Below are positions 3,132 to 13,192 of a stretch of DNA of 51,631 nucleotides, one piece after another. The DNA is from Patescibacteria group bacterium (GTDB lineage: Bacteria > Patescibacteriota > Patescibacteriia > UBA9934 > GWF2-40-263): contig JBBTRQ010000014.1 of the NCBI GenBank assembly GCA_038065075.1, forward strand, positions 1 to 51,631, in the 5' to 3' direction. The position numbers and the translations under genes were made by a program. Position 1 is the stretch's first letter; each line of letters opens with the position of its first letter. Below the pieces are notes generated by a model. That model was not told where the DNA came from and ran no database searches. It saw nothing but the letters and a program-made list of their open reading frames with translations.

Positions 3132-5255
3132 CTAGATTTTTGCCCGCTTGATCCTAAGCGAATTAAGCACCACTGAGACGCTCGAGAACGCCATGGCCGC
3201 GGAGGCGATGAGCGGGTTGAGGAGTCCGAGTGCCGCCAACGGGATCGCCGCGATGTTATAGAAGAATGCCCAGAAGAGATTTTGTCTGATGCCTCGATAC
3301 GTTGCCGCGGCCAGCTTGAGACCCGCCACGACTTTCTCGGGACCTCCACCGACCAACACAATTTGTCCCGCCTCGATCGCCACGTCGGTTCCACTGCCTA
3401 CCGCGATCCCGAGATCGGCCTGGGTGAGTGCGGGTGCATCGTTGATGCCATCGCCGACATAGGCCACCCGTTTGCCTTTCGCCTGCCACGCCTTCACGAC
3501 CTCAAGCTTGGTTCCAGGCAAGACTTCCGCCTCGATTTGCTCGATCCCCAACTCATGCGCGATTGCCTCAGCTGTACGACGGTTGTCTCCCGTAACCATC
3601 ACCACCTCGCGACCCATGCGTTTCAATTCCTCGATCGCGGCTTTCGCGGTTGGTTTTGCCGCGTCGGCGATAGCGAGGAGGCCAAGGAGTTTACCGTCAG
3701 CACAGGCGACGACGACCGTCTTCCCTTGCTTCTGCCAATCTTCAGCCAATGATCGATTTTGTCCGATCGGACATAATTGTTCCACGTACTCCACCGATCC
3801 AACAACGACCTTTTTCCCCGCAACCACGCCCTCAATCCCCTTTCCTACAAGTGCCCGAACCTGCTCAGCTGGCGGATACGATATTGTCCGATCGGACATA
3901 TAACGCACAATTGCCTGACCCAGCGGATGTTCGGAAGACGCCTCCAGCGACGCGACGAGAGCAAGGTGCTCATCGTTGAGAGTCGAATCTGTCACCGATG
4001 GTCGACCCTCGGTTAGCGTCCCGGTCTTGTCGAACAACACCACATCGATATGACGATTGCGCTCCAGCGCCTCGCCGCTCTTGATGAGAATCCCCTCGCG
4101 GGCGCCGCGGCCGGTGCCGACCAGGATCGCCGTGGGTGTCGCGAGTCCCAACGCGCAAGGACACGCAATCACCAACACCGCCACCGCCGGAATAAACGCG
4201 GTCGTCACCTCCCCCGTGAGGGCATACCAGATGCCAAACGTCACGGCGGCGATCACGATGACAATGGGAACAAAGACCCCGGAAATCTTGTCGACAAGTT
4301 TCTGGATCGGTGCCTTTTGCTGTTGCGCGTTCTCGACCAGTTTCACGATCTGCGCAAGGACAGTGTTGCCCGAGAGCGCGGTCACTTTCACGGTGAGCGC
4401 TCCTTGCTGGTTCACGGTCGCGCCAAACACGGTGTCTCCTTCTTTCTTTCCCACTGGCATACTCTCACCGGTAAGCATGGATTCGTCCAGCGACGACTCC
4501 CCTTTGATGATCGCTCCGTCCAGAGGAATCTTCTCGCCAGGTTTCACGAGGACGATGTCGCCCAGCTTTAACGATTCAACAGGAACGTCTTGAGCTTCAC
4601 CCAGGCTGAAGCCTGGGGCTACCAATTTGTGCGCCATCTTGGCGCCCAGCTCGAGTAATCGTGAGATGGCCTCGCTCGCTTTTCCTTTTGCTCGAGCTTC
4701 AAAGTAGCGTCCGAGCAGAATGAACCCGGTGATGAGCGCGGCAATCTCGAAGTACAAATCTCCACCCACGGACAACTGCCACCAACTGAATGCAAGCGCG
4801 ACCAGCGTTCCCATCGTAATGAGCGTGTCCATGTTGGCGTGTCCGCGCTTGAGTTGGCTCCATGTCGCTTTATGAAATTCCATTCCAGGACCCAGGACGA
4901 CGATACTTCCCAACATGGCCTGAACCCATGGCCAAAGCCCCAGCATCGCGATCACGACGCAGGGAATCGCAAGGCTCATGGAAATCGTCGCACGACGACC
5001 AGCAGATCCGCCCGACCCATGGTGGGCGTGCTCACCCATGTCCATCCCAGGTGCTTGCACACCATAGCCCATTCCCTGAATCGCCGTGTGAAGATCATGC
5101 TCGGCGACCGTGTCATCATGCTCGACCGCGGCGCTCGCAAGTGCATAGTTAACATTGGCCTTGTGCACACCCGGATATTTTTCGAGCTCACGCTCGATCG
5201 TCACGGCGCAGCTCGCACAGTGCATGCCCGTAATTTTGAATTGTGTATTCGACAT
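3132..5255 (-). CDS. copA: Copper-translocating P1B-type ATPase
   Basis: N-terminal GMHCASC HMA domain, TGES, CPC, DKTGT, SEHP, GDGIND, YN and MxxSS motifs. Confidence 0.96.
3759..3900. repeat. Two exact copies of TTGTCCGATCGGACATA (3759-3775, 3884-3900) inside copA
   Basis: 17-bp direct repeat containing the perfect 14-bp palindrome TGTCCGATCGGACA, read in two different codon frames. Confidence 0.75.
4598..4622 (-). repeat. GTAG-tagged REP inserted in frame in copA
   Basis: Minus strand GTAGCCCCAGGCTTCAGCCTGGGTG; 24/25 identical to 17732-17756. Confidence 0.85.
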
Positions 5256-7252: not shown

Positions 7253-9709
7253 TCACTTGCCAACGAGCTGTTTTTTAATAAGCCGTTGAAACTCCTCTCC
7301 TTTTTCTTCGAAGTTTTTCCACAACGAGTAGCTTGGGGACGCGGTTGAGAGAAGGCAGATTTCCCCGGGTCGCGTATGCGTCATGGCGAATCCAACAGCC
7401 TCTTCCATCCTCCGAGTTTCCAAAACAGTAAACCCCCGACGCGAACGCAGGATCCGTTTCCCGCTCTCGGGAAAGAGTACAACATTTCTGACGTGATACT
7501 TCCTCAACGCCTTCTCAAGGGAACGAAAATCATATCCTCGATCCTCTCCGCCCAGAAAAATCGTCCCGACCGGCGAAAGCGAGCGCAGAGCCATGATGGT
7601 AGATTCAGGCGTCGTCGAAATGGCGTCATCGTAGAAGTGGAAGCCCTGCACGGTGGCGACGAACTCGAGCCGGTGCGGAAGAGGCTTGAAACTCTTGATC
7701 GCCTTACGGATGGCCGATACGGAAACGCCGAAGGAACGCACGGCCTCGATGGCCGCCTGGATGTTGGTTCGGTTGTGCGGACCCAGGAGCGGAATCTCTT
7801 TCTCCTTCACAGGAATCCGCGCGTGGAATGGCGGACGGATCGCGACGTCTCCAGGACGCTGGAACGCAAAAATGTTTTTCTTCGCGCGATAGTAATTGGC
7901 CACTCCCCCATGGTAGTTCATGTGTTCCGGAAACAGATTGGTAAGAACGGCCACGTCAGGTGAGTATTCGATATCGTCGAGCATGTAACTTGAAAGCTCC
8001 ACGACGAAAATCTCCTCGGGATCGATCCGGCCAACCAGCACTCCCAACATGGGCTCCCCCACATTCCCGACAAGACGTACCTTTTTCTCGGCACACTTGA
8101 GCATGGCGTAGATCAAACTGGCTGTCGTGCTTTTCCCTTTACTGCCCGTCACCCCGATCACCGGATTTTGAATCCGGGAAAAAAACAGATTCGTCGCCGT
8201 GATGTAAGGAATCGTCACGACGGTTTTCGGAATCCCCGGCGTCTTCACGGCAAGCTCATAGCGGGATTGCTTGGCAAGGTAATTCTTGTCCCGGCTCTTA
8301 TCCAGAATCCCGATCGAAAGATGCGGGTAGGTCTTTTTGAGGTACGCATGCGTGACCTTCCCCTCCCGACCGTAGCCCAAGAGACACACCGAGTTCAGTC
8401 CAAGAAGTCGAAATCGCGTGGGCAAGGTCGGAGCTCGATTCAGGCTCATCACCGTTTCCACGAGATGCCGGCCATGCTTGATCTTTGGGAGGAATGTCCG
8501 AACGACGATATCCCGCTTGTCCTTCTTGGAAGCGAGAAACAACGCGGCGCGCGCTTCTTCAAATGTGCCCACGCAATCAAATGGCTTCTGCGTCCCAAAT
8601 CCGAGAATCTCTTTATACAAAGGAACCAACGAGGGGTCGGCGAAAAGATTCTTGCCAAAGATCGAACAGAGATCCTTCCGAGGGACAAATGGCGAGAGGA
8701 TTAAAAAGACAAATGCACACTTCGGACATGTCCCACACCACAATGTCTTCGGCCGCTCACGAGAAACAGTGAAGTTACGGTTGCAACTGGAGAACAGGGA
8801 AAAATACTGCTTGTGTTTCGCGAACATCTTGGCAATGCGGATCTCGAAAAATGGGCGCAGGAGCGAGACGTACGTGATGTCGGGTGTGATGAACTTCCTC
8901 GTGTACTCCTGGAGCATCGCCTCGAACTCCGCGGACTTGCTCCACTGATGGTTGATGGTCTCTCCTCGATACCGCAGGTTTCCGACATTGCTGCTGTGCT
9001 CGTTTCCAACAACCACATACCGATAACCGTACAGAGCGGATGTGAGGAGTCCCAAAAACGCAAACACGGCAGAGATGGGGATATGGCCGTTGTAGGCACC
9101 CTCGTGCGGCAAGAAAATCTGCGGGTCAAGCATTCGTTGGATGCGCAGGGCGGGGTAACCCATCTCTTTGGCCACGCGGTCGGCAATCGGATCCCGTCGT
9201 TGGGTCTCTACAAGAAACGACGTGGTTTCCAGAACGTCCCGAAGTAGTTCGCCCGCGACGATCGAGTCCTTCCCTCCGCCAATACCCAAAAGTGCCCGAT
9301 CCTCGACGTCCAGCCGGATCGGAGCCGTGCGAACGGAAGATGAGGGAAACGTCGCGAGACGTTTGGGATCGATTTTATTTCGATACAAAAATTCTCCGAG
9401 TCCCTTTTTGTAGACGGTGGTCCAGAATGTGGCCTGCTCCTTGGAAAGAAGAAACGGCAGAGCAATCTTTGGCGGGCAGTACAACTTGTAATAACTGATT
9501 CCGAGAATGAGATGAAGCGGCTCAAGAAATTTCTTTTGAAATGCCGTCGAGATTTTTTGGGGACTTCTCGGGAGTCGAATCGTTTCGGTAAACGTGAGCG
9601 GAGCACGGTCGGAAAAATCTATTCGGTAGGTAAAGTGAAACTCCTTTTTCTTCGGGAAAAAGCGATAGCCTTCAAAATGAAACGTTGTTGCGTGTGGAGT
9701 CATGGCCAT
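7253..9709 (-). CDS. Fused UDP-MurNAc-L-Ala-L-Glu epimerase (MurL) and MurD-like ligase (MurD2)
   Basis: N-terminal half GGGKDS, NGHIPISA, NHQWSKS, SSCNRNF, WCGTCPKC, KPFDCVG (MurL); C-terminal half GYGREG, GVTGSKGKSTT, ELSSY, PHRLE, LLSTASPSY (MurD family). Confidence 0.88.
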   Translation of the reverse strand: MAMTPHATTFHFEGYRFFPKKKEFHFTYRIDFSDRAPLTFTETIRLPRSPQKISTAFQKKFLEPLHLILGISYYKLYCPPKIALPFLLSKEQATFWTTVYKKGLGEFLYRNKIDPKRLATFPSSSVRTAPIRLDVEDRALLGIGGGKDSIVAGELLRDVLETTSFLVETQRRDPIADRVAKEMGYPALRIQRMLDPQIFLPHEGAYNGHIPISAVFAFLGLLTSALYGYRYVVVGNEHSSNVGNLRYRGETINHQWSKSAEFEAMLQEYTRKFITPDITYVSLLRPFFEIRIAKMFAKHKQYFSLFSSCNRNFTVSRERPKTLWCGTCPKCAFVFLILSPFVPRKDLCSIFGKNLFADPSLVPLYKEILGFGTQKPFDCVGTFEEARAALFLASKKDKRDIVVRTFLPKIKHGRHLVETVMSLNRAPTLPTRFRLLGLNSVCLLGYGREGKVTHAYLKKTYPHLSIGILDKSRDKNYLAKQSRYELAVKTPGIPKTVVTIPYITATNLFFSRIQNPVIGVTGSKGKSTTASLIYAMLKCAEKKVRLVGNVGEPMLGVLVGRIDPEEIFVVELSSYMLDDIEYSPDVAVLTNLFPEHMNYHGGVANYYRAKKNIFAFQRPGDVAIRPPFHARIPVKEKEIPLLGPHNRTNIQAAIEAVRSFGVSVSAIRKAIKSFKPLPHRLEFVATVQGFHFYDDAISTTPESTIMALRSLSPVGTIFLGGEDRGYDFRSLEKALRKYHVRNVVLFPESGKRILRSRRGFTVLETRRMEEAVGFAMTHTRPGEICLLSTASPSYSLWKNFEEKGEEFQRLIKKQLVGK

Positions 9710-9811: not shown

Positions 9812-9885
9812 TCGGGGATCGTCTAACGGCAGGACAGCAGCCTTTGAAGCTGTGAATCTTGGTTCGATTCCAAGTCCCCGAACCA
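9812..9885 (+). tRNA. tRNA-Gln(TTG)
   Basis: Acceptor TCGGGGA/TCCCCGA, anticodon loop CT-TTG-AA, GGTTCGATTCC, CCA end. Confidence 0.95.
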
Positions 9886-9920
9886 ACAAAGTCTCAGCGA
9901 CACCGCTGGGATTTTGTTTT
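9886..9920 (+). terminator. Intrinsic terminator after tRNA-Gln
   Basis: ACAAAGTCTCAGCG/CGCTGGGATTTTGT hairpin plus T run. Confidence 0.7.
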
Positions 9921-9925
9921 TCCTT

Positions 9926-9942
9926 CAAGTGTACTACACTTG
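9926..9942. promoter_or_regulatory. Palindrome just upstream of the Dph6-like gene (possible operator)
   Basis: CAAGTGTA-C-TACACTTG, perfect 8-bp arms, ending 6 nt before ATG 9949. Confidence 0.4.
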
Positions 9943-9948
9943 TTATGT

Positions 9949-10653
9949 ATGTTAGAAAAAGCGGCGATCCTTTTCAGTGGAGGTAAAGACAGCATCTACT
10001 CGCTACAGGCGGCACAAAAATATGTGCCGATTGATCTTATTGTGAGTCTAACGTCCACACAGGGAGACACACAGTTTCATGCCGGACCCGAGGTTGAGAA
10101 GGCTCTACGGGAGTCTCAACTTCAACTGTTGGGGATCGAAAACGAGACGTTAATTCTGAGCGCGGGTCAGGGTTATTTGCGGGAATTTTTTCTTGGACTA
10201 GACGAGATGCTACGGAGTCGGGGAATAACACACTTGGTCACAGGAGATCTTTGGCATCCATACACCTCGGGCATTGGTGACATGCTCGGTGCGGCTCTGG
10301 ATGTCACGATTCTAAGACCCGCCCGCGATGCATGTCCCACAAGGGACGCATCCGTGAGCTACATGAATAAAGTGATCGAGTCCGGTATCCAATCGGTCGT
10401 CGCGAGTGTGCGAGAACGAGATCTACCCAAAACGTTTGTCGGGAGAACAATCGACAAAACCTTTGTTGCTGAACTCGAGTCGATGAACATCGACAGCGCC
10501 GCCGAGGGAGGCGAATACCAGTCATTTGTCTTGTCCTGTCCGCTGATGAAAGGAAGGATCGTCATCGACGAGTTCGACGTGGCGATCGTGGACGGCAAAA
10601 ATGACAAGGAACGATTTGAAAAAATGTGTGTGAAACGATTCCACATTGAGTAA
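9949..10653 (+). CDS. PP-loop ATP pyrophosphatase, DUF71/diphthine-ammonia ligase (Dph6) family
   Basis: FSGGKDS PP-loop, VTGDL, FVGRTID, AEGGEYQSFV. Confidence 0.88.
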   Translation: MLEKAAILFSGGKDSIYSLQAAQKYVPIDLIVSLTSTQGDTQFHAGPEVEKALRESQLQLLGIENETLILSAGQGYLREFFLGLDEMLRSRGITHLVTGDLWHPYTSGIGDMLGAALDVTILRPARDACPTRDASVSYMNKVIESGIQSVVASVRERDLPKTFVGRTIDKTFVAELESMNIDSAAEGGEYQSFVLSCPLMKGRIVIDEFDVAIVDGKNDKERFEKMCVKRFHIE

Positions 10654-10656
10654 GCT

Positions 10657-11655
10657 ATGATCGATCTATCGGTGCTCCAAACAAAACTTCGAACCTTCCA
10701 CAAACCGCTGAGCGATTCGATACTCGAGGAGTTCTCACCCATTGCTGGGAACCAGTTCCCTGGCGAATTCAACGTGAGCGGATTCCACGATAAGGTTTTG
10801 AACCTGCCGGATCAGCCTTCAAGTTTTTGGGGAGTAGACCGGTGTCTACGCATTCAGGAAACATTCGACAGAACTCACTCGGCCATTTTTCACATGGGCA
10901 TCTTCGCCAAGGCCGTTCAGCTGAACGAAAACTTCTCTGATCCCTTCAAGGATCCTCGTTTCCATAAACTCCAATCTGAGATGATCCTCCAGTTTCTCGA
11001 GCTGACAAAAAGTTTGGGAATAAAAGATTCAGATCTCGAAACAACGTACTTTGGTGGTTGTGATGTGGGTGGCCATCCGGAAGGCCGGGATTATCTGGTC
11101 AAACGACGCTACCCATTTCCGGCAGACAAAATTTCACAAGGACTCTTAAGAATTCGCCGGATAAAAACCTACGCCGTAAAATCTCTTGCGAATGTAGACG
11201 TCCAGCAACACGACCTGGCGCTGGTCGGTCCGAGAATGGAGGTAGCCGCTAAGGGCATTGAGATTGGAACCATCGTGTTCGATTGTTTTCGGATAAAAAA
11301 AGACAAGCTCTTCCCTATCAACTACGTCGCCGGTTACGCCATCGGGCTTGAAAGGATCACGACCGTCTTGCGTGGAGAACAAAATTTCTTGAGAGCCGTT
11401 CCAAGATACATACGGGCATTGAACGTGCTCGCCACCGCTATGCCCAGCGCAAAATCAACCCTCATCGAAACGGAAGTAATGAAACTTATCTTCGGTATCG
11501 AGGCAATTGCCAACATCCCCAAAACTCTCTCTGTACATCAACGGATGAGACTGAAACAGCTAACAAAAACAGTCGAGGCAACGGCCAGAGACATAGCGGT
11601 AAGTCCTAGAGTGGTTCAAAGACTCCTCATGTTCTTCAAAAAAGGACATACATAA
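10657..11655 (+). CDS. Stand-alone, divergent alanyl-tRNA-synthetase-like catalytic domain
   Basis: Colinear with AlaRS motifs: RCLR (KCIR), HSAIFHMG (HHTFFEMLG), VGPRMEV (CGPCSEI), IEIGTIVF (LEIWNLVF), GLERITTVLRG (GLERLAAVLQG); no editing or C-Ala domain. Confidence 0.75.
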   Translation: MIDLSVLQTKLRTFHKPLSDSILEEFSPIAGNQFPGEFNVSGFHDKVLNLPDQPSSFWGVDRCLRIQETFDRTHSAIFHMGIFAKAVQLNENFSDPFKDPRFHKLQSEMILQFLELTKSLGIKDSDLETTYFGGCDVGGHPEGRDYLVKRRYPFPADKISQGLLRIRRIKTYAVKSLANVDVQQHDLALVGPRMEVAAKGIEIGTIVFDCFRIKKDKLFPINYVAGYAIGLERITTVLRGEQNFLRAVPRYIRALNVLATAMPSAKSTLIETEVMKLIFGIEAIANIPKTLSVHQRMRLKQLTKTVEATARDIAVSPRVVQRLLMFFKKGHT

Positions 11656-11706
11656 CAGACGTATTCATCCCGTTCTGATCACGCCGTCCACAAAGGAGAC
11701 GGGTCA

Positions 11707-11743
11707 CAAAAGCCACCCTGAGTTTATCGTAGGGTGGCTTTTG
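11707..11743. terminator. Bidirectional intrinsic terminator
   Basis: CAAAAGCCACCCT/AGGGTGGCTTTTG between convergent genes. Confidence 0.8.
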
Positions 11744-11745
11744 AA

Positions 11746-11994
11746 TTAGAGATCATTGTAGGTCGTATCTGTCCGTCGCTCGATGGCAATGATCCTATTT
11801 TTTGAATCCGGAACTCGACGGAAGATGATTCTAAAGTCCCCTCGTCTTACCCGAAATATATCGTCTCGACTTTGAAGTTTCTTTACATCAAGCCCAAACA
11901 ATTGATTTGTCTGGACAAGTCGGATCGTCTCGGTAAGCTGTTTCAGTTCTTTTGGTTGGAGTTTTTTCAAAACCTTCTTGATCCGATCAACCAT
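11746..11994 (-). CDS. RelE/ParE-family toxin
   Basis: 82 aa, basic; DVKKL, FRVRRGDFRIIF; downstream of an antitoxin. Confidence 0.85.
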   Translation of the reverse strand: MVDRIKKVLKKLQPKELKQLTETIRLVQTNQLFGLDVKKLQSRDDIFRVRRGDFRIIFRRVPDSKNRIIAIERRTDTTYNDL

Positions 11995-11998
11995 ATCG

Positions 11999-12220
11999 CT
12001 AGACGGACTTCAACATCTTCAAAAGATCACTGGCCAAAATACCGCCTTTTCGAAACTGGGTAAAATCAATAACGGTTTCCCATCCCTCTTCTTCAACCGG
12101 CTCGGCTCGGAAAAGCGGACGGGATCGCTTTGTGATGATGAACGTCTCACCTTTCGCGATGCGGCCAGCGTATTTCGCCACGTCCTCGCGAAACTCCTTG
12201 AGTGGTACAAAATTTTTCAT
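11999..12220 (-). CDS. Phd/YefM-family antitoxin
   Basis: LKEFRE...GETFIITKRSRPLF N-terminal fold; paired with the toxin. Confidence 0.82.
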   Translation of the reverse strand: MKNFVPLKEFREDVAKYAGRIAKGETFIITKRSRPLFRAEPVEEEGWETVIDFTQFRKGGILASDLLKMLKSV

Positions 12221-12251
12221 AGATAAACTTTAAATCACCTTTAGTTTATCT
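12221..12251. promoter_or_regulatory. Inverted repeat, likely TA autoregulatory operator
   Basis: AGATAAACT-N13-AGTTTATCT immediately upstream of the antitoxin ATG. Confidence 0.55.
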
Positions 12252-12277
12252 TCAATCGTGAGAGCCGTCAAACAAAG

Positions 12278-13192
12278 TTAGACCTTCAAATACTTCCGCA
12301 TGGCCAATCCCGTTGAGAACAACGTCACCAGAACCAGCGCGAGGAATTGGCCGCCGAAGATGAGGAGACCATTTTGGACAAAGTAGTCGACGAGTCCTGC
12401 GGACTCGGCACCGAAGTAAACGCTGAGTTGAGGTTCGATCACGGCCACGGTTGGAAACACGATCAGCGCAGTGAGACCGACCGCCATGAGCGAGAGCAGG
12501 ATCATTTCAAGCAAGAACGGCGCTTTGATGAACCAGTTACTTGCCCCCACCAGGCGCATGATGCCGATCTCCTCGCGGTGGATGAAGATGCCGATGCGCA
12601 CGGTGTTGAAAACAATCAAGATCGCGATAAGCAAGAATACGACCGCCAACGCGATCCCGAACGCACGGATGCGGTCGGTCGTCGAGCGGATACGTTCCAC
12701 AATATTTTGGTAGTCGGAAAAATCTTTTTCGCGGATGAAGTCACGGAACTGCGGGTTATCCAGAGCGTCGATGATCTGCGTGAAGTCCTCCGGTGTATGT
12801 GCTTTGACGATCAGGCTGGGCCCAAATGGATTTTGCCCGAGCTCCTCCAGACTCGCCATGATCTGCTCATCGTTTTGGTGGCGCGCCACAAATTGGTCGT
12901 AGGCTTCCGTGGCCGAGACCGTGGCAACATCACGAACCTCACTCAAGCCACGCAAATAGGCAACAGCCGCCGAGACAGTTGTGTCTTCTGTGTAATCGTA
13001 GAAGTAAACCGATACCTCGATCCGATCTTCGACCAGCGCGATCGCTCGATCTGTGATGACATTCAAGACCAGCAAGATGTTGATCGTCACGAGTGTCAAC
13101 AAGAGCATGCTCACAGTGATGAGGGACAACCAGAAATTTCTCCAAAAGTTCTGGAAGGCGAATTGTGTCACTCGATAGGAACTCACGAACAT
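12278..13192 (-). CDS. ftsX: Cell division permease FtsX
   Basis: QNFWRN, four TM segments, FNTVRIGI, EEIGIMRLVGASNWFIKAPF; follows ftsE. Confidence 0.95.
   Translation of the reverse strand: MFVSSYRVTQFAFQNFWRNFWLSLITVSMLLLTLVTINILLVLNVITDRAIALVEDRIEVSVYFYDYTEDTTVSAAVAYLRGLSEVRDVATVSATEAYDQFVARHQNDEQIMASLEELGQNPFGPSLIVKAHTPEDFTQIIDALDNPQFRDFIREKDFSDYQNIVERIRSTTDRIRAFGIALAVVFLLIAILIVFNTVRIGIFIHREEIGIMRLVGASNWFIKAPFLLEMILLSLMAVGLTALIVFPTVAVIEPQLSVYFGAESAGLVDYFVQNGLLIFGGQFLALVLVTLFSTGLAMRKYLKV

Follow-up and report, generated by a model that had tools for sequence, protein, structure and literature searches.

Background

The catalytic cores of aminoacyl-tRNA synthetases (aaRSs) are known to be reused outside translation (PMC9437257). 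EpmA/PoxA and the amino acid:carrier protein ligases, whose parents are the lysyl- and seryl-tRNA synthetases (LysRS and SerRS), are class II cores that adenylate and transfer to acceptors other than tRNA. AcmF, an aminoacyl transferase of ascamycin biosynthesis that resembles alanyl-tRNA synthetase (AlaRS) (PMC12945691), is the sole AlaRS-derived enzyme acting outside translation in the literature searched. Here we analyse a stretch of 51,631 nucleotides (the window; contig JBBTRQ010000014.1, numbered C14 here, of a 1.09-Mb Patescibacteria genome) that carries a cassette of two open reading frames (ORFs) on the + strand: ORF1 (9949..10653, 234 aa), a Dph6/DUF71-like PP-loop ATP pyrophosphatase assigned through PF01902, and ORF2 (10657..11655, 332 aa), a stand-alone paralog of the AlaRS catalytic core assigned through fold and alignment. 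An earlier annotation of the bare sequence (the original prediction) had described these two genes as lying 3 nt apart behind a tRNA-Gln gene, and the coordinates agree. We tentatively favour, at a confidence somewhat short of even, a reading in which ORF2 is an ATP-dependent ligase for an acid other than alanine that makes a small molecule together with amidating and reducing tailoring enzymes.

AcmF and ORF2 are both truncated AlaRSs, made up of the aminoacylation domain and part of the tRNA-recognition domain, and both lack the Asn and Asp that read G3:U70; AcmF works outside translation, and the same is proposed for ORF2. They differ in the pocket, where the positions of Asp235, His86 and Asn212 of AlaRS (matched from the residue list of the review) are Glu, Trp and Gln in AcmF and Gly, His and Thr in ORF2, and in their partners, which are AcmD and AcmE in the one case and a Dph6-like enzyme and a short-chain dehydrogenase/reductase (SDR) in the other. 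The residue of AcmF at the Asp235 position, Glu232, is essential and holds the alanyl amine (PMC12945691), and the ORF2 family differs from AcmF at precisely this residue. Adenylation and transfer to a non-tRNA acceptor, as in EpmA/PoxA and the carrier protein ligases, are likewise proposed for ORF2, but its parent is AlaRS and no gene for EF-P, EpmB or a carrier protein is linked to it. By analogy only, an aaRS-like domain of the agrocin 84 (agn) cluster has been proposed to link a nucleotide with a non-amino acyl amide; unlike the cassette, agn comprises 17 genes with an exporter and a resistant leucyl-tRNA synthetase (LeuRS) (PMC8323819). No description of the ORF2 family or of its pairing was found in the literature searched (PMC2922099 included; subscription journals mostly outside coverage). 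The original prediction had likewise known of no description of the pairing; AcmF, the nearest precedent, had been missed.

Overall structure of ORF2

By sequence ORF2 gave no AlaRS match in Pfam, NCBIfam or the PDB, and the profile of its family reached just E 0.34 against the PDB. The AlphaFold model (mean predicted local distance difference test score, pLDDT, 95.3) nevertheless places it clearly. AlaRS catalytic fragments were the top Foldseek hits (TM 0.75), and in a structure search with the model AlaRS entries took ranks 1–18 (Z 29.5–21.0), followed by the alpha subunit of glycyl-tRNA synthetase (GlyRS) at Z 16.5. The best AlaRS superposition (Z 29.5) has a root-mean-square deviation (rmsd) of 2.4 Å over 298 aligned residues, at an identity to the AlaRS structures of about 13–18%. 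The ESM Atlas result concurs, and a profile-profile comparison of ORF2 with 21 AlaRSs (E. coli and 20 Patescibacteria) gave a probability of 99.6. The predicted structure thus shows motifs 2 and 3 and a class II catalytic fold of the AlaRS type, as expected for the AlaRS paralog originally proposed.

Compared with the AlaRS catalytic fragments (5knn, 4xeo, 3hxu), ORF2 has in common the fold over its 332 residues (Z 27–29.5), motifs 2 and 3 and the ATP residues, whereas its pocket is rebuilt and the readers of tRNA identity are missing. The editing and C-Ala domains are absent, as had been noted from the sequence: the chain stops at 11655, near residue 345 of E. coli AlaRS, homologs measure 249–353 aa, and the helical tRNA-binding domain is partly retained. 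A full-length alaS had been expected elsewhere in the genome, and an ordinary one of 588 aa was located on contig C32; PF01411 scored above cut-off in 10/10 other carrier genomes tested, in two of them in pieces. Derivation of ORF2 from the host's own alaS was ruled out by its placement in the tree (see below). Neither ORF1 nor ORF2 matched an anti-phage defence model of the PADLOC 2023 library, and the prediction of an ORF1–ORF2 complex scored 0.00, which speaks neither for nor against binding.

The active site of ORF2

Residues are numbered as in E. coli AlaRS minus the first Met, on an alignment of 63 sequences and a family alignment of 50 members, and the geometry of the ORF2 pocket was read from its alignment to known residues. 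In class II/AlaRS enzymes Arg69, His86, Phe90, Glu209, Gly239, Glu241 and Arg242 serve ATP and adenylate binding. The counterparts of six of them in ORF2, R65 (R69), H74 (H86), F78 (F90), E202 (E209), G230 (G239) and R233 (R242), are invariant in 50/50 family rows, and E232 (E241) is found in 49/50. The motif 2 Arg in RCLR (R65), motif 3 as GLER and the DTG replaced by GYA, all recognised in the original prediction, are borne out by the alignment. The nucleotide site therefore appears intact, and the retained residues suggest that ORF2 could still adenylate a substrate.

The amino acid pocket differs at several positions. Trp170, presumably part of the alanine pocket, is Trp in 21/21 canonical AlaRSs and Asp in 13/13 Dph6-paired members (D181 in ORF2) and in 45/50 family rows; the NFW segment, formerly judged not recognisable, aligns as N179-V180-D181, with the Asn kept and the Trp replaced by this conserved Asp, which could bind an amine or hydroxyl located farther away. 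Gly237 is Gly in 21/21 canonical enzymes and Ala in 13/13 paired members and 50/50 family rows (A228 in ORF2). The PDB includes structures of the E. coli AlaRS G237A variant, and this substitution is said to narrow the alanine pocket. Asn212 is changed to Thr in 47/50 rows and Thr236 to Tyr in 50/50, and S41, H44 and R193 are new conserved polar residues of the family. Asp235, the residue that binds the alpha-amino group of alanine (PMC12143591), is Asp in 21/21 canonical AlaRSs and Gly in 13/13 paired members (Gly226 in ORF2); over the 50 rows the position is Gly in 46, Met in 3 and Ala in 1, and never Asp or Glu. The changes at Asp235, Trp170 and Gly237 agree with the altered pocket that had been proposed, and suggest that it was rebuilt for a substrate lacking an alpha-amino group of the standard kind.

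The two readers of G3:U70 in AlaRS are Asn303 and Asp400 (PMC6055181). The first is replaced by Ser in 11/13 paired members (S292 in ORF2), and the second would lie beyond the C-terminus. ORF2 thus lacks Asp235, Trp170, Asn303, Asp400 and the editing domain, hallmarks of a functional AlaRS, and probably has no specificity for tRNA-Ala.

The residue at position 235 also bears on an alternative in which ORF2, like AcmF, would use no ATP and would pass an aminoacyl group from a charged tRNA to an adenosine-like acceptor lodged in the old ATP site. AcmF offers a direct precedent, as it likewise has no G3:U70 readers and keeps the nucleoside-binding Arg, Phe and Glu (PMC12945691). Such a transfer, however, needs an acid where AcmF has Glu232 and the ORF2 family has none, and genes for a dedicated AlaRS, a hydrolase or a nucleoside pathway are absent from the cassette. 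We regard this alternative as improbable.

Two other variant synthetases were encountered. The housekeeping AlaRS of some small-genome lineages (L051, L056, L073) has EIGN for EIWN and DFG for DTG. A match on a Streptantibioticus cattleyicolor megaplasmid (L063, 7827–9095, + strand) is a truncated AlaRS of about 400 aa with a canonical pocket (NWW, EVWN, VDTG), and was set aside as a different type.

ORF1, a DUF71 enzyme with its own signature

The assignment of ORF1 to Dph6/DUF71 was upheld by PF01902 (E 4.7e-21, 75.8 bits against a cut-off of 23.2) and by its fold, which resembles that of the Pyrococcus furiosus protein 3rjz (Z 24.4, rmsd 2.3 Å, 200 aligned residues), the next structure scoring Z 10.7. 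A TTG start at 9859 was rejected, as it falls inside the tRNA-Gln gene and homologs start at the ATG, here 9949. With Dph6 and the DUF71-B12 group ORF1 has in common the fold, the SGGKDS loop, the equivalent of His48 (H44) and the EGGE motif. It differs in an insertion that holds Cys129, invariant in its subfamily. Among the best 120 of 607 matches, 58 have E-values of 2e-39 or better and the next has 2e-13, a drop that sets the ORF1 group apart as a separate subfamily.

Bacterial DUF71 proteins have been divided into a Dph6 group, with the signature EGGE/DxE188, and a B12 group, with ENGEF/YH188, some members being left unexplained (PMC3541065). ORF1 has neither signature, and scores 80.8 bits against the cut-off of 197.3 of the Dph6 model TIGR03679. 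Position 188 is Gln (EGGEYQ, Q191 in ORF1) in 58/58 aligned rows of the subfamily, which, on sequence criteria, is a third DUF71 signature (Gln188) with a partner gene of its own. The contacts to elongation factor 2 (EF-2) proposed for Dph6, S44, Y45, Q104 and E188, are T41, Q42, T106 and Q191 in ORF1. A role in B12 salvage was ruled out by the motif and by the gene context, with no btu or cbiB gene among the neighbours scanned at 34 loci and no cobalamin riboswitch in the 8 loci searched. In two archaeal carriers an ordinary DUF71 gene exists in addition to the one in the cassette.

Distribution and selection

The ORF2 family comprises 51 close homologs of nearly constant length (35–54% identity to ORF2), and at the 50% clustering level 32 representatives, including distant proteins of 349–369 aa with the Asp235-to-Gly change. 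A distant sister group (P0193–P0208, 349–408 aa) has the AlaRS core and keeps Asp235-to-Gly and GPRxE, with Thr, Leu or Val at the Trp170 position; some of these proteins bear the annotation alanyl-tRNA synthetase. Carriers with assigned names comprise Patescibacteria, uncultured archaea and Verrucomicrobia, and the loci paired with a Dph6-like gene belong to Patescibacteria and archaea. Occurrence is very patchy: the family was found in 0/72 other genomes of the window's taxonomic family and in 4/371 archaeal genomes, gave no strong match in 400 genomes of the phylum (of its 25 weak matches 21 were read, all of them ordinary alaS), and has no member in the viral contig, phage and plasmid collections searched.

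In an unrooted IQ-TREE phylogeny (quick search, support from the Shimodaira–Hasegawa-like approximate likelihood ratio test, SH-aLRT, alone, the branch of one archaeal-type AlaRS being long), the 30 family rows cluster together on a long branch, separate from all 21 canonical alaS including that of the host. The unpaired sequences from soil are mostly nested among paired ones. A deep-branching member, P0185 (509 aa, with an extra N-terminal region; L104, 6348–7883, + strand, contig G504:C50 of an archaeal genome), is also unpaired, and its gene is flanked by what we take, from their sequences, to be the glycyl- and tryptophanyl-tRNA synthetase genes.

The ratio of nonsynonymous to synonymous substitutions (dN/dS) for the ORF1 and ORF2 genes is 0.05–0.27 in those of the closest pairs whose dS is not saturated; for the window's own lineage no ratio is given because dS against the window is saturated. 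Both genes are therefore under purifying selection in those pairs. The protein distances of ORF1 and ORF2 correlate over 13 loci (r 0.88), which is expected of any co-inherited cassette. That ORF2 might be a decaying alaS fragment beside an unrelated DUF71 gene was suggested by its identity of just 14–18% to AlaRS structures and its lack of a Pfam match. This explanation is refuted by the size of the family (51 proteins of near-constant length with invariant active-site residues), by dN/dS well below 1 and by the tree, and has next to no probability left. The AlaRS fold, the recurrence of the pair and the selection are each the opposite of what the original prediction had named as fatal to it, that is, no AlaRS fold, a pair never conserved or dN/dS near 1.

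Gene neighbourhood

Neighbours were surveyed at 34 loci, 13 from genomes and 21 from metagenomes, with at least three duplicates (L021, L022, L028); of 169 neighbouring ORFs, 38 were chosen for scanning and the rest read by eye. A Dph6-like gene lies before the AlaRS-like gene in 17/32 judgeable loci and is absent in 15, the two others starting at a contig end, so that the adjacency seen in the window is a conserved one. The junction, examined in 12 paired loci, is an overlap in 10 and a 1-nt gap in one, and in L029 an SDR gene stands between the two. Indirectly, the longest contig of 26/51 ORF2 clusters has the same size as that of an ORF1-subfamily cluster. The AlaRS-like gene is the core of the cassette, as it is also present without the Dph6-like gene (15 loci).

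A third gene, missed in the original prediction, encodes an SDR and occurs in 14/15 paired loci that have downstream sequence, in three versions (8 RmlD-like, 5 CsgA-like and 1 other). The RmlD-like SDRs are 44–84% identical among themselves and about 30% identical to the genome's own rmlD product. They are cassette-specific, found in 2/371 archaeal genomes, the same two that carry the pair, and in 0/241 genomes of the window's phylum, a sample without a positive control. The five CsgA-like SDRs of the 14 lend weak support, because this type is common without the cassette. On contig C27 of the window's genome lies a CsgA-like SDR (51–57% identical to the L002/L016–L018 type); its use in trans is possible and unsupported, 14/72 cassette-free family genomes having one too.

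As RmlD-like genes, whose products keep GxxGxxG and YxxxK, are the most frequent third gene, and cell-envelope genes are close by at a few loci (L003, L023, and murL-murD in the window), the cassette might serve the tailoring of a nucleotide-sugar or surface glycan, the SDR reducing a keto-sugar bound to a nucleoside diphosphate (NDP), the Dph6-like enzyme amidating a uronate and the AlaRS-like enzyme N-acylating an amino sugar. The RmlD substrate motif STDYVF has, however, become SSPAVFD in a shortened substrate domain, the cassette has no recurring gene for an aminotransferase, glycosyltransferase or flippase, and the SDR type is exchangeable, all of which make this a poor candidate.

The three activities are also those needed for an amide-first route, in which the SDR would form a hydroxy acid, the Dph6-like enzyme would convert it into a carboxamide and the AlaRS-like enzyme would adenylylate the amide nitrogen, giving a stable N-acyl-phosphoramidate like agrocin 84's toxic moiety. 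The co-occurrence of Dph6-like and SDR genes fits this route, loss of the Asp that binds the alpha-amine suits a hydroxy-acyl substrate, D181 is retained in 13/13 paired and in 3/12 unpaired members, and the aaRS-like AgnA has been proposed to form this very bond (PMC8323819). The role of AgnA is itself only proposed, however, and an asparagine-synthetase-like AgnB1 was not borne out, the same paper calling it S-adenosylmethionine (SAM)-dependent. The loci have neither an exporter nor a resistant second aaRS, and lone copies of the AlaRS-like gene have no amide-forming partner. We consider the route unlikely.

Unpaired copies follow a SAM methyltransferase gene (L008, L009, L010, L033), precede a Nudix gene (L011) or stand alone. 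The methyltransferase, conserved and of about 400 aa, replaces, in Verrucomicrobia, the Dph6-like gene upstream of the AlaRS-like one (L008 6621–7727, L009 6517–7749, L010 6284–7738 and L033 4776–6002), and PF01902 was found in 0/4 Verrucomicrobia carrier genomes. The partners therefore look like exchangeable tailoring enzymes: a Dph6-like enzyme plus SDR, a SAM methyltransferase (some Verrucomicrobia) or nothing at all. A divergent Lrp/AsnC regulator accompanies four distinct archaeal paired loci (L004, L007, L019/L026, L020). No acceptor gene, such as efp or a carrier-protein gene, recurs at the 34 loci among ORFs of at least 60 aa. As for tRNA genes, two for tRNA-Ala flank the paired cassette of L002 (272–345 and 9871–9944, − strand), an arrangement found at no other locus, and in L006 ARAGORN reports a tRNA-SeC with a TCA anticodon (3750–3837, − strand) 33 nt past an unpaired archaeal AlaRS-like gene, which may be intron-containing or miscalled.

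The insertion site

In the window the cassette lies in an insert of about 2.4 kb (9919..12277, ends approximate) between the terminator of tRNA-Gln(TTG) (9812..9885, + strand) and the stop codon of ftsX. In the same-genus genome G404, which has no insert, the tRNA-Gln terminator directly meets the ftsX stop codon, from which the extent of the insert follows; the tRNA gene occupies the same position beside ftsX in relatives without it. The GC content of the insert is 0.42–0.50 against 0.54 in the flanks, and GC at third codon positions (GC3) is also below that of the flanks. The cassette is mobile. No duplicated tRNA 3' end or integrase-type att repeat was found at the insert. A contig of a second study spans 10151–11597 with no differences, and one of a third study spans 9831–10204. 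A joint skipping 9886–12542 in two sequencing runs was not taken as excision, one of its sides being just 31 letters long.

The tRNA-Gln gene, behind which the original prediction had placed the module, is a host gene that marks the landing site of the insert and nothing more. It has its own terminator-like hairpin and T run (9885..9925, + strand; a similar hairpin follows tRNA-Gln in G404), which part it from the cassette, and tRNA-Gln was found in 0/33 other loci scanned, a few of which adjoin other tRNAs. On these two grounds it was ruled out as a substrate or an operon member.

Directly upstream of ORF1 lies the expected palindrome (9926..9942, 7-bp arms); a comparison by eye revealed none in the upstream sequences of 12 homologous cassettes. 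A TACACT hexamer overlaps it 8 nt before the ATG of ORF1 (9935–9951); the promoter scan did not report this hexamer. The start of ORF1 has no obvious Shine-Dalgarno sequence, compatible with a leaderless transcript. Downstream, the predicted terminator corresponds to a perfect 13-bp inverted repeat (11707..11743), likely a terminator between the cassette and a convergent toxin–antitoxin (TA) pair. The insert also carries this pair, which had likewise been recognised earlier: a RelE/ParE-like type II toxin candidate (11746..11994, − strand; PF05016, E 0.016) and a Phd/YefM-like antitoxin candidate (11999..12220, − strand; PF02604, E 2e-4), both below cut-off. The pair was not seen in the neighbour lists of the other cassette loci.

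On the other side of the tRNA gene lies an 818-aa fusion (7253–9709, − strand) in which MurD is joined to a MurL-like UDP-MurNAc-Ala-Glu epimerase (NF041275, E 8e-107, below cut-off). The gene in its slot in G404 is, as we take it from its sequence, glutamate-racemase-like, and gave no tblastn match in the window's genome; apparently, the D-Glu route has here undergone non-orthologous replacement.

Proposed function and implications

In the scenario that we tentatively favour, ORF2 would form an acyl-adenylate from a carboxylic acid other than alanine and would pass the acyl group to a small-molecule acceptor and not to tRNA-Ala. ORF1 would amidate a carboxylate through an adenylate of its own, with ammonia or an amine as the probable donor because no glutaminase is linked to it, and the SDR of most related cassettes (the window has none) would reduce a carbonyl of the same product. 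All the enzymes may then act on one molecule, the AlaRS-like protein being the constant element while its partners vary.

Several observations weigh against this scenario. The adenine-binding residues kept by ORF2 would equally fit an adenosine-like acceptor, as in AcmF. Unpaired copies have dN/dS of 0.17–0.28 and are thus selected without a Dph6-like gene; the SDR is missing from L005 and from the window, and CsgA-like SDRs also occur in 14/72 family genomes without the cassette. The loci have no recurring gene for an exporter, immunity, a carrier protein or precursor supply, whereas pathways to secreted metabolites usually do. The enzymes do not form an obligate unit, since the SDR is missing in two loci and the Dph6-like gene in 15 selected ones. 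Of the two-enzyme module first proposed, the conserved pairing holds and the strict restriction to two enzymes does not.

Selected lone copies would be expected if the acceptor were a common host component, and would not need pathway genes if the AlaRS-like enzyme, in the manner of EpmA/PoxA, attached an unusual acid to a protein of the host or to a tRNA base, the Dph6-like enzyme and the SDR maturing the adduct as Dph6 does for diphthamide. Both ancestral enzymes act on translation components, PoxA provides a precedent (PMC9437257) and the helical tRNA-binding domain is partly retained. Such a role is difficult to reconcile with the very patchy occurrence in the genomes of the family, the phylum and the archaea, with the spread over both bacteria and archaea, with the absence of a target gene or specific tRNA recurring near the cassettes and with the altered EF-2 contacts of ORF1, and we hold it to be rather unlikely. 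Whatever weight is left falls to other readings, such as the synthesis of dinucleoside polyphosphates or the detoxification of adenylate mimics.

A more specific proposal, which we also consider unlikely, is that the cassette is a minimal, mobile pathway of two to three genes: a carboxamide produced by a new Dph6 subfamily would be adenylylated by a rewired AlaRS core to a stable aminoacyl-adenylate mimic. If this were true, the mimic would be an aaRS inhibitor or a signal of ultra-small symbiotic bacteria and archaea against hosts or competitors, and the cassette would represent a single branch within a broader, undescribed radiation of AlaRS cores reused as plug-in ligases.

As the cassette consists of two or three small soluble enzymes, the ligase reading that we favour is open to direct assay. 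The cassette would reveal the way in which a synthetase pocket is remodelled to take an acid other than alanine, which bears on the lactyl-transfer chemistry of AlaRS, and Patescibacteria and small archaea, poor in biosynthetic pathways, would gain a specialised chemistry common to both domains.

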